Shown here piece after piece: positions 42,557-45,088 of a stretch of DNA of 64,000 nucleotides (position 1 is its first letter; the number at the start of each line of letters is the position of its first letter). This DNA comes from a virus (lineage: Duplodnaviria > Heunggongvirae > Uroviricota > Caudoviricetes), in IMG/VR virus record IMGVR_UViG_3300010409_000003, one strand, 5' to 3'. The translations under genes and the position numbers were made by a program. The notes beneath the pieces were generated by a model. That model saw only the letters and a program-made list of their open reading frames with translations. It made no database searches and was not told the DNA's origin.

Positions 42557-45088
42557 TTGAGTAATAAAGTTGTTATCCAACCACAGTGACAAAGAGGGTC
42601 ACAAGAGTTAGCATTTAATATAACTAACAAAGGTGTTGATGTAGTAATATATGGAGGCGCAGCAGGATCGGGAAAAGCACTAAAACATGGAATGCCAGTT
42701 CTAACTAGTAATGGTTGGGTCAACATAGAAGATATTTCTGTAGGAGATTCTGTGGTAGGTTCTAAGGGCAATATAGAAGATGTTCTAGCTGTATACCCAC
42801 AACCTAAAAAAGATATATATAAGGTCACTTTTCAAGATGGTGGTGATGTAGAGGTTTGTGGTGAACATTTATGGACTATTACTATCGCAGGATATGGACA
42901 AAAGAACCGTAAAACTATAGACACTTTAAAACTAAAGAGTATACTAGATAAAGAATATGGTAAACCGAAAGGTTCTCGTAGACGTTACCCCTTAATTGAC
43001 CTACCCAGTAACTTAGAATACTCTCAAGATAAAGAGCATAAACTACACCCATACTTAGTGGGCTGTCTATTAGGCGATGGCTCTATCAATAAAGAAGTGG
43101 CTATCACATCTGCCGATGAAGAACTTATTGAGAGGTTGAGGTCATTAGGTTATAAAGTAAATAAGAGGTCTTCTAAGTATGCATACGGTATACACAATAT
43201 AAAAGATGAACTTATTTCATTAGGATTATTTGGACATCAATCTTACACAAAGAGTATCCCAGACGAGTATCTGAACAGCACTTATCTTAATAGGCTTGAA
43301 TTACTAAGAGGTCTTATGGATACAGATGGTTGTGCTAATCTAGATACATCTCTAGAGTTTTGTACAGTCTCTACCCAGTTAGCTAAAGACATGCAATACC
43401 TTATTAGAAGTCTAGGTGGTACTGCAACTATAACTGAGAAGAAAACACCGTCTCCTTTTGGAAAAGCCTATACACTATATATAAGATATCCGAATGGTTC
43501 CGATATATTTCACTTAACTCGTAAGAAAGAAAGATGTAAGGTTAAGAAGATTAAAAATAGAGTTGTTAGTGTAGAGTTAGTAGGTAAAGACTATTCGACT
43601 TGTATTTCAATTACAGGAGAAGATAAACAGTTTATTACCAAAGACTTTATAGTAACTCACAACTCACATTTAATGTTAATGCATCCACTACAGCATGTAC
43701 ACGATGAGAACTTTAACGGTATATTCTTCCGTAGGGTTACTACTCAGTTAGTAGGTGCAGGTGGTCTATGGCCTGAAAGTCAGAAGATGTATAAACCATT
43801 TAAAACTAAAACAAGAAACAAACCTCAATACCAACATGAATTTCCTAGCGGATGTACCTTAACGTTTGCACATATGCAGCATGAGGATAACTGTGAGGAT
43901 CATCAGGGTCTTCAGTATTCTTTTGTAGGCTTCGATGAGCTAACCCACTTCTCAGAGAGGCAATTTACTTACCTCTTATCCCGACTACGTTCAGAAGCAG
44001 ATAGTGATTCTTATGCTTTCGCTTCGTGTAACCCAGATGCAGATTCTTGGGTTATAAATTGGATAGAGTGGTGGTTGTTGGACTCAGGATTACCTGATCC
44101 AGATAAGCAAGGTAAGGTAAGGTACTACATCATATTAGATGAGAAACCTGTCTTTAGAGATACGGCTGAACAGTTAATAGAAGATTTCCCTGATGCATGT
44201 AAGGTATGGAATCCTGTAGATGATAAGTACATTATAGTGCAACCTAAGTCCTTCACTTTCATAGCAGGAACTATCTTCGATAATCCTATACTAATTAAGA
44301 AAAACCCTAAATATCTAGCAGAGCTTAACTCTTTACCTAGAGTAGAACGTTCAAGACTACTAGAAGGTAACTGGTATGCTAGGGCAGAGGGGAGTAACTA
44401 CTGGAATAGAGATTGGTGTGAGAATGTACCTTATCCTAACTTCAAGACTACTAAATGTCGTGCATGGGATAAAGGAGCCAGTGTACCGAGTGAGAAAAAT
44501 AGATATGTCGATCCCACTGCCTCTATAAGAATGGAGAAAGGTGAGAATGGTATTTATTATATCATAGGGGATTTTATACCAGAAGGTAAAGATGAGAAAT
44601 CAGATATTTATGGTAAGTTCTGTAGGTTAGCAGGGGAACGAGACACTATTATACTCAACCAAGCTGAAGCTGATGGTGAAGAAGTTCCTGTAATACTACC
44701 TAAAGATGTTGGTCAAGCAGGTATAGTTGAGTTCCAAGAGTCAGCTAAGAAGTTGTTATCAGAAGGTTATATAGTACGTGCAGATGCAATGCCTACTAAT
44801 AAATCCAAGTTAACTAAGTTTTCTCCTTTTGCAGCAGCTTGTCAAGCAGGTCTTGTACGAATAGTTGAAGACTCATTCCCCAATAAAGCTACACTAGATG
44901 CTTTCTACAAAGAACTAGAGTCCTTTGATGGTGAACGCTCTACAGCACACAGGAAAGACGATTGGCCTGATGCATGTGCCACAGCATTCAACTACCTCTG
45001 TAAAGAACGTGTAATTAAGATAGTCCCTCGTAATCAAAATAATGATCCTACACTAGCTAAGTCTGTGTTAGATAGTATGAATATATAA
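42557..45088 (+). CDS. terminase large subunit interrupted by an intein; the N-extein contains an in-frame TGA at 42587
   Basis: SD AAGGAGG (42544-42550) then TTG at 42557. The frame reads MSNKVVIQPQ-TGA-QRGSQELAFNITNKGVDVVIYGGAAGSGK, then the intein, then S-HLMLMHPLQ... This reconstitutes the Walker A motif GAAGSGKS. The C-extein of about 474 aa ends SVLDSMNI. Confidence 0.65.
42677..43663 (+). mobile_element. intein (about 329 aa) with a LAGLIDADG homing-endonuclease domain, inserted in the terminase P-loop
   Basis: N-terminal Hint block VLTSNGWVNIEDISVGDSVVG...CGEHLW. Two LAGLIDADG motifs (YLVGCLLGDGSI and LLRGLMDTDGCA). C-terminal FIVTHN followed by the +1 Ser that completes GKS. It starts with Ala, which is non-canonical. 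Confidence 0.7.

Follow-up and report, generated by a model that had tools for sequence, protein, structure and literature searches.

A predicted class 3 LAGLIDADG intein in the Walker A motif of a tailed-phage large terminase whose gene carries a conserved in-frame stop codon

An in-frame insertion splits the Walker A codons of terL

The window analysed here is a stretch of 64,000 nucleotides (nt) of a tailed phage (Caudoviricetes; IMG/VR record IMGVR_UViG_3300010409_000003), and coordinates are window positions unless another sequence is named. It is an AT-rich genome segment (34% G+C) that contains a large terminase gene, terL, on the plus strand at 42557-45088 with a TTG start at 42557. 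Two features set this gene apart. Its Walker A (P-loop) codons are interrupted by an insertion that reads as an intein with a LAGLIDADG endonuclease, and the part encoding the N-extein is interrupted by an in-frame TGA at 42587-42589, between the TTG start and Walker A. The TGA was absent from the initial annotation of this DNA. The positions of all features are collected in Table 1.

On the flanks of the insertion, Pfam recognised Terminase_6N and Terminase_6C. The spliced protein scored 108.7 bits with PF03237 and 30.4 bits with PF17289, and its Terminase_6N match begins at profile position 1, the score of 108.7 bits comparing with 93 bits for the precursor. An N-terminal P-loop ATPase, a C-terminal RNaseH-like nuclease and an adjacent portal gene at 45407-46987 mark the product as a Terminase_6-type TerL. 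The best protein matches, at 54% identity, are the TerLs of the Klebsiella phages KP13-16 and FBKp34 and of the Aeromonas Plateaulakevirus group. A megablast search of GenBank phages with the terL region gave no match, and thus the phage has no close cultured relative. Three uncultured relatives are used repeatedly below: L007 (IMG/VR UViG 3300038701_000531, 81% nt identity), L006 (Logan SRR33375167, with a different intein) and L016 (ENA ERZ650157, with neither intein nor intron). The layout of an AAGGAGG followed by the start codon is common to all three.

In the terminase frame, 42521-43720 translates as ...VVIYGGAAGSGK/ALKHGMPVLTSNGWVNIEDISVGD...CGEHLW...LVGCLLGDGS...LLRGLMDTDGC...STCISITGEDKQFITKDFIVTHN/SHLMLMHPLQ..., or, in a longer reading, as ...VDVVIYGGAAGSGK/ALKHGMPVLTSNGWVNIEDISVGD...VEVCGEHLW...HPYLVGCLLGDGS...RLELLRGLMDTDGC...DYSTCISITGEDKQFITKDFIVTHN/SHLMLMHPLQHVHDENF..., where slashes mark the junctions of the insertion. 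The junction codons are GCA (Ala1, 42677-42679), AAC (Asn329, 43661-43663) and TCA (Ser+1, 43664-43666), and the position of 42677-43663 given for the intein in the initial annotation proved exact to the base. The insertion point lies between the Lys and Ser of Walker A, GGAAGSGK/S. Homologues free of the insert run through the junction as GGAAGSGKSHLLLMHPLQ (P0002 and P0004-6) or GGAAGSGKSRL (FBKp34 and Aeromonas 2L372X); an intein-free reading across it is also given as GGAAGSGKSHLL. Since the insert splits a motif that is contiguous in these homologues, its precise excision would restore Walker A. The earlier proposal that excision rejoins GSGK to S in a canonical Walker A is supported by these homologues and by the rise in the Terminase_6N score.

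The insertion has the further hallmarks of an intein, namely the four splicing blocks (A, B, F and G), His-Asn at its C-terminal end and a nucleophile at +1, and it stands in frame at a conserved host site that is continuous in insertion-free homologues. The Hint (Hedgehog/intein) blocks and both LAGLIDADG motifs, which had been recognised before, were read in the sequence, the latter with a significant Pfam match.

Table 1. Positions of the terL features in the window and of corresponding features in related loci
Feature	Position	Strand	Basis
Shine-Dalgarno AAGGAGG of terL	42544..42550	+	read from sequence; 6 nt before TTG 42557
TerL N-extein, first 10 codons, MSNKVVIQPQ, before the in-frame stop	42557..42586	+	homologous to N-termini of stop-free relatives
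6-nt insert TGA CAA (stop and second Gln codon), preceded by CAG 42584-42586	42587..42592	+	sequence comparison
Remaining N-extein RGSQELAFNITNKGVDVVIYGGAAGSGK, last residue is Walker A Lys	42593..42676	+	translation, homologue alignment
Predicted class 3 intein, 329 aa, Ala1 to Asn329	42677..43663	+	translation, Pfam, alignment of 72 relatives, model, BLASTP with prototype
Block A ALKHGMPVLTSNG with non-nucleophilic Ala1	42677..42715	+	alignment with structurally known gp41-1 and DnaB inteins
Block B core CGEHLW: C61 (B:7), H64 (B:10), W66 (B:12)	42857..42874	+	H64/W66 align with Bethlehem H65/W67
LAGLIDADG endonuclease domain, about residues 106-290	42992..43546	+	Pfam LAGLIDADG_3 (PF14528), E 1e-11
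LAGLIDADG motif 1, LVGCLLGDG	43055-43081	+	D134 at 43076-43078; acidic residue kept in 71/72 relatives
LAGLIDADG motif 2, LELLRGLMDTDG (LLRGLMDTDG)	43295-43330	+	D217 at 43325-43327; acidic residue kept in 68/72 relatives
Cys309, block F:4 (in STCISI), predicted first nucleophile	43601..43603	+	aligns with essential Cys320 of Bethlehem intein
Block G: T327 (G:5), H328, N329, then Ser+1, first C-extein residue and Walker A Ser	43655..43666	+	alignment of 72 relatives, BLASTP with prototype
TerL C-extein: rest of ATPase domain and RNaseH-like nuclease domain, TAA stop	43664..45088	+	Terminase_6N, Terminase_6C; 54% identity to FBKp34 TerL
CAG TGA CAA, TerL codons 10-12	window 42584-42592; L007 3497-3522; L006 2320-2331; L016 ~1468-1479	window +; L007 -	sequence
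L026 insert CAG/GTG TAA/AAA, 6 nt	~570-590 (JGI 3300023443 Ga0255804_10023600)		same TerL position
L024 insert CAG/TGAGTGA/GCT, 7 nt	~560-585 (ENA ERZ23498525 scaffold_171)		same TerL position
Group I introns in terL of relatives	L005 ~438-665; L007 638-861 and 2109-2384 (reverse-complement coordinates)	L007 -	terL of relatives

Signature residues assign the intein to class 3

Class 3 inteins are defined by a non-nucleophilic residue 1, a covarying triplet of Trp at B:12, Cys at F:4 and Thr at G:5 (the WCT triplet) and Ser or Thr at +1, and they sit mostly in P-loops of helicase-like ATPases, phage terminases included (Tori et al. 2010, PMC2807308; Kelley et al. 2016, PMC5050341). In class 2 (KlbA) inteins, Ala1 is combined with Cys+1 and the WCT triplet is missing (Tori et al. 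2010, PMC2807308). The key residues of the window intein are A1, C61 (B:7), H64 (B:10), W66 (B:12), C309 (F:4), F319, T327 (G:5), H328, N329 and S+1. A search for the WCT triplet thus found it complete, as W66, C309 and T327, together with Ser+1 and a position 1 occupied by none of Cys, Ser and Thr.

To see how general this pattern is, 72 inteins inserted after GxGK were taken from database matches and aligned. Residue 1 is non-nucleophilic in 71 of them (Ala in 62) and Cys in one. Trp stands at B:12 and Cys at F:4 in 71 each, Thr at G:5 in 70, and all 72 end in His-Asn; H64, H328 and N329 are invariant, and +1 is Ser in 40 and Thr in 32. Two P-loop inteins deviate. In P0019, Phe replaces the Trp of block B and Ser the Thr of block G (HLF...VVSHN), and P0109 starts with Cys (GK/CIFSQ) and keeps PTHN/S.

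The class 3 prototype, characterised biochemically, is the intein of mycobacteriophage Bethlehem (‘MP-Be DnaB’ in Tori et al. 2010; TerL1-c in Kelley et al. 2016). BLASTP aligned the window intein with it end to end (E 2e-23, 27% identity), pairing H64/H65, W66/W67, C309/C320, F319/F330, T327/T339 and the terminal His-Asn. Both inteins have a non-nucleophilic residue 1, the block B His and Trp, Cys at F:4, an aromatic residue 10 positions later and a terminal Thr-His-Asn; in each, a hydroxyl residue occupies +1, blocks B and F enclose a LAGLIDADG endonuclease, and the host is a phage terminase. They differ at position 1 (Pro in Bethlehem, Ala in the window), B:7 (Ser and Cys) and +1 (Thr and Ser).

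The non-nucleophilic Ala at position 1, as reported in the initial annotation, is encoded by GCA here and also in L007, and that annotation had left open whether the intein is of class 2 or class 3. In a class 2 intein, the N-terminal scissile bond would come under direct attack from the +1 residue, and block F would supply no nucleophile. Ala1 is common to KlbA inteins (Tori et al. 2010, PMC2807308), including that of Methanococcus jannaschii, which shares it with the window intein; however, known class 2 members have Cys+1 and no WCT triplet, whereas the window intein has Ser+1, the complete triplet and homology over its full length to the class 3 prototype, and its host is a phage P-loop ATPase and not archaeal KlbA. 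We therefore consider class 2 very improbable. By its sequence, the window intein is a class 3 intein.

The remaining alternative is an ordinary class 1 intein that in truth begins with Cys or Ser, in which case the Ala would reflect a sequencing error or a wrongly placed boundary. All that speaks for it is that inteins as a whole rarely start with Ala. A Logan contig from run SRR5035895 is identical to the window over 4547 nt including the TGA, although its independence from the window is uncertain; the same codon in L007 and Ala1 in 62 of the 72 relatives contradict the idea, raised earlier, that re-sequencing might reveal a Cys or Ser; and the boundary GSGK/A follows from aligning the exteins. 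The chance that the first residue is wrong seems to us negligible.

The modelled fold and the substitution pattern suggest a maintained two-domain intein

For the intein flanked by ten extein residues at either end, an AlphaFold2 model based on a 36-sequence alignment reached a mean predicted local distance difference test (pLDDT) of 92.1 and a predicted template modelling score (pTM) of 0.90. Foldseek searches of the PDB with the whole model retrieved PI-SceI (E 3.9e-19, template modelling score (TM) 0.68), TliVMA, PhoVMA and PI-PfuI. The Hint part matched the gp41-1 and MchDnaB-1 inteins and the central domain matched I-DmoI, while a PDB sequence search with the intein returned the gp41-1, DnaB and PI-PfuI inteins. 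The matches to PI-SceI, gp41-1 and MchDnaB-1 place the splicing part in the Hint fold. D134 and D217, the paired alpha-beta-beta-alpha-beta-beta-alpha fold and the resemblance of the model to I-DmoI, PI-SceI and PI-PfuI point to a two-motif monomeric LAGLIDADG endonuclease; Pfam gave a weak, sub-threshold Hom_end_hint match inside the insert as well. PI-SceI, PI-PfuI and the Tli and Pho VMA inteins share the overall two-domain fold with the window intein (Foldseek E 4e-19 to 3e-10, query-normalised TM 0.55-0.68), but they are class 1 inteins with Cys1 and extra DNA-recognition regions, at 11-19% sequence identity.

We then compared the window with the L007 orthologue. The ratio of nonsynonymous to synonymous substitution (dN/dS) came to 0.05 over the whole intein and 0.04 within the endonuclease domain, synonymous sites being close to saturated. 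By this comparison, purifying selection acts on the splicing part and on the endonuclease part alike, and both are thus probably functional. For site-specific cleavage of intein-less alleles by the endonuclease, the value of 0.04 is indirect support only.

A stop codon at TerL codon 11 is conserved among relatives

The frame of the N-extein reads MSNKVVIQPQ, stop, QRGSQELAFNITNKGVDVVIYGGAAGSGK. An open reading frame (ORF) list starts the terminase ORF at Met6 of the intein because the upstream frame holds the TGA, and no ATG, GTG or TTG lies in frame between the TGA and the intein. The N-termini of stop-free relatives (MAKKVVIKPQKGSQE..., MKKEPVVIQPQKGSQE...) are homologous to MSNKVVIQPQ, with codons that differ synonymously between lineages. 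Where these relatives read PQKGSQE, the window reads PQ, stop, QRGSQE; the stop thus belongs to a 6-nt insert, TGA CAA. Approximately 150 homologues without the insert all keep the PQxGxQ spacing, and a two-residue insertion occurs in none.

The 12 nt CCA CAG TGA CAA are invariant in four lineages, represented by the window, L007, L006 and L016, whose C-exteins are 56-90% identical to each other. Around these 12 nt the codons vary synonymously (GTT/GTA, ATC/ATT, GCT/GCA, AGA/AAA/AAG, GGG/GGT and TCA/TCT/TCC). CAG and CCA are minority codons in the window genome (27% and 26%), and at the same position stop-free relatives have CAA or CAG and CCA or CCC. A neighbour-joining tree places the stop carriers in three subclades, each with stop-free sisters. 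Two further relatives, L026 and L024, carry other stop-containing inserts at this position (Table 1). The insert of L024 breaks the frame, so that the first 11 codons of the gene stand in another one, and it has stops in both frames. Gene callers start the TerLs of L026 and L024 at a Met ten residues before Walker A.

Stop inserts were absent from 80 more distant IMG/VR TerL loci, and the N-terminus is normal, without one, in the cultured relatives KLEP7 and Vibrio phages K354 and 355E48.1; JGI metagenomes and GTDB genomes yielded no additional carrier either. The truncated N-termini of P0036, P0164 and P0179 were examined as possible stop carriers and turned out to be mis-called starts. Variants of the insert with a sense codon (e.g. 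TGG), searched for with the pattern CCACAGNNNCAAARRGGNTCNCARGA, were found in neither IMG/VR nor GTDB genomes, and JGI metagenomes gave one chance match.

Could the TGA simply mark a dead gene, with terL a pseudogene and the intein an unexpressed relic? The in-frame TGA, the lack of a canonical start before Walker A and the use of TGA as a genuine stop elsewhere in the window would fit. Against this, the 832 codons after the TGA are open, and intein and extein are under strong purifying selection relative to L007, which has the same TGA (dN/dS 0.05). Furthermore, CCA CAG TGA CAA is kept in four lineages from four assemblies across 56-90% TerL identity while neighbouring codons change synonymously, and TerL is essential for tailed phages. 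The low dN/dS downstream of the stop argues that terL is not a pseudogene, and we regard a dead gene as quite improbable. Taken at sequence level, the TGA is neither a sequencing error nor a recent nonsense mutation, and a functional TerL would require recoding at codon 11.

Possible routes of decoding the codon 11 stop

A genome-wide reassignment of TGA was considered and rejected. TGA terminates 5 of the 49 long ORFs of the window, including one in an ATGA overlap, and dropping TGA from the stop codons lengthens ORFs no more than dropping TAG. A frameshift around the TGA of the window was rejected as well, both other frames being closed. No conserved stimulatory RNA structure was found after the TGA. 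In the DNA at hand, which includes no complete genome, no suppressor tRNA was seen: the 64-kb window has no tRNA gene, and near terL of the relatives we found only tRNA-Pro and tRNA-Thr. The tRNA-Pro(TGG) and tRNA-Thr(TGT) genes lie at 397-600 of L008 (IMG/VR 3300038701_000531, the closest relative), ~2 kb upstream of terL.

In bacteria, a UGA with C as the next base is known to terminate poorly, as at the RF2 frameshift site. Readthrough of the UGA, probably by tRNA-Trp to yield PQWQRGSQE, is a plausible route, with somewhat less than an even chance of being the correct one. It could not join the first 11 codons of L024 to the rest of the protein, since the 7-nt insert shifts the frame.

Translational bypass of the stop is a more doubtful possibility. 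In a stop-hop, the peptidyl-tRNA-Gln would leave CAG with UGA in the A site and re-pair on the CAA 6 nt downstream to give PQRGSQE. The hop product PQ[R/K]GSQE would match the PQxGxQ spacing of the ~150 homologues, and the CAG-TGA-CAA arrangement fits in all four lineages. In known stop-hops, the codons on either side of a stop are matched and 9 nt are decoded as one amino acid; they have been seen in synthetic constructs only, with no natural case known (Atkins et al. 2016, PMC5009743), and a 2024 preprint agrees that no natural stop-hop is known. The synthetic examples in Escherichia coli (Weiss et al. 1987, as reviewed in Atkins et al. 2016, PMC5009743) resemble the window site in that codons for one tRNA, here the Gln codons CAG and CAA, flank the stop and 9 nt would specify one amino acid. 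The window site differs in being known from sequence alone, in the lack of a conserved RNA structure and in having two related lineages without matched codons. Indeed, the inserts of L026 (GTG TAA) and L024 (TGAGTGA) at the same position speak against a simple stop-hop. A related system is the 50-nt bypass of T4 gene 60.

The codon just 5′ of the point where decoding would resume is CAA, UAA or UGA in the three insert types. All three could pair with a UUG anticodon by Watson-Crick or G-U pairing, which allows a speculative unification by bypass. The position would then be a programmed recoding site at which tRNA-Gln hops from CAG to CAA, UAA or UGA 6-7 nt downstream, the first natural stop-hop; we hold this to be rather unlikely.

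Re-initiation, a trans-acting suppressor or another route accounts for the rest of the probability. L016, L024 and L026 have an ATG or GTG in frame, ten residues ahead of Walker A, and may re-initiate there. This start is absent from the window, L007 and L006, for which re-initiation after the stop was rejected because no in-frame start lies between the stop and Walker A.

The intein belongs to a large phage family and its site is a hot spot for mobile elements

A tblastn search of GenBank phages with the intein alone matched 860 records, 653 of them over at least 80% of the intein length. The matches come from jumbo phages, mycobacteriophages, Enterococcus phages and others, where they fall within terminases, helicases and helicase/terminase-like proteins; among metagenomic proteins, a search found the same architecture in dozens of TerL, PhoH-like and helicase sequences. 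The window intein joins a large, already described phage family and changes no concept; class 3 P-loop inteins are common in phage terminases and helicases, and the element is less unusual than first proposed.

The prototype intein of Bethlehem sits in the large terminase (AY500153 7260-9971). The DnaB-like helicase gp62 of Bethlehem was examined as its host and rejected, as gp62 carries no intein. The insertion sites of the two inteins differ: the window intein occupies the Walker A Lys/Ser of a Terminase_6-type TerL, whereas the Bethlehem intein occupies site TerL1-c of a Terminase_1-type TerL, located by Kelley et al. 2016 (PMC5050341) in a helix of low conservation. The ‘classic’ P-loop inteins, e.g. 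mycobacteriophage TerL1-a (Kelley et al. 2016), share the GxGK/[ST] insertion point with the window. So do the Ala1 inteins in helicase/terminase-like proteins of jumbo phages, among them that of Salmonella phage SPLA3, which is 38.6% identical over all 329 residues and reads GRGK/ALAHG...CGEHLW...TCIRV...VTHN/T. These classic and SPLA3-type inteins differ in their host families, and the closest relatives of the window intein (35-52% identity) are found in exteins distant from the window TerL.

Within the closest TerL clade, the same ~30 nt of the Walker A region carry several different mobile elements. The window and L007 have the class 3 intein at GK/S. Two residues upstream (GGSAG/C...N/SGKS), P0003/L006, P0018, P0041 and others have a class 1 intein with Cys1. 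Group I introns occur at three or more positions in or near the Walker A codons: after GGA in L005 and L007 (Rfam RF00028, 52.6 bits), in L017/L018, where the intron carries an HNH_3 endonuclease ORF, and in L019. In L007, a single terL gene combines this intron with the class 3 intein and, at HQGL/QYS, with another intron.

Several observations accompany these elements. The Cys1 intein family is unrelated to the window intein. Its members start with CV[ST]AETEYL... or CLDGQTEYL..., occupy the site GGAAG/C...N/SGKS and are carried by P0003/L006, P0018, P0041, P0046-48, P0053, P0160, P0183, P0197 and P0202. Both intein types seem to be present in P0062, in tandem sites. Aeromonas Plateaulakevirus phages are annotated with two ‘terminase’ coding sequences, split at the HQGL/QYS site.

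Other genes of the window

The window encodes a primase-helicase, a PIF1-like helicase, an RNA ligase and a Dam methylase, followed by the large terminase, portal, major capsid protein, tape measure and baseplate genes. The tape-measure gene is in two parts, split by a group I intron at 55942-56231 (Rfam RF00028, 77.7 bits, E 5e-18): the ORF at 54844-55953 fits PHROG tape-measure profiles to about position 431, and the ORF at 56284-57177 resumes at about 432. As listed, the portal ORF overlaps the next ORF (46815-47705) by ~170 nt. The latter gave weak PHROG matches to head-maturation protease and methyltransferase, and its true start is probably further downstream.

Discussion

We propose, with a probability of about 0.88, that terL of this AT-rich tailed phage is interrupted in its Walker A codons by a mobile class 3 LAGLIDADG intein. 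Splicing would follow the class 3 route. Cys309, aided by the block B residues His64 and Trp66, would attack the Lys(-1)-Ala1 bond to form a thioester branch, the N-extein would be transferred to the hydroxyl of Ser+1, cyclisation of Asn329 would free the intein, and an O-to-N acyl shift would yield GGAAGSGK-S, an intact P-loop and an active packaging ATPase. A full-length precursor would require the ribosome to pass the in-frame UGA at codon 11. During co-infection, the endonuclease would cut intein-free terL at the P-loop codons, and repair would copy the intein in. We infer this chemistry, as well as current splicing and homing activity.

Two findings weigh against this proposal. The TGA lies 30 codons upstream of the intein and leaves the precursor without a plain ORF; were the stop absolute, no splicing-competent intein would be made. 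In addition, intein and extein have diverged to a similar degree between the window and L007. The similar divergence suggests that the inteins of these two phages were inherited vertically with the gene, so that recent homing is not supported. On the other scale, close TerL relatives are intein-free or carry other mobile elements at the same codons, which amounts to the patchy distribution that homing produces.

The ~30 nt that encode Walker A of TerL appear to attract selfish elements strongly, and the window intein fits the view of phages as the reservoir of class 3 inteins. As a sequence-diverse class 3 intein with Ala1 and Ser+1, it could also serve in engineering. The conserved stop-containing mini-insert could matter more than the intein itself. 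If the stop is read through, it would act as a translational attenuator of an essential late gene. If the ribosome hops over it, a phenomenon so far confined to synthetic constructs would have its first natural case. Should bypass be correct, terL, a gene that is also an intein and intron hot spot, would need ribosomal bypass and then class 3 protein splicing to give an active enzyme.

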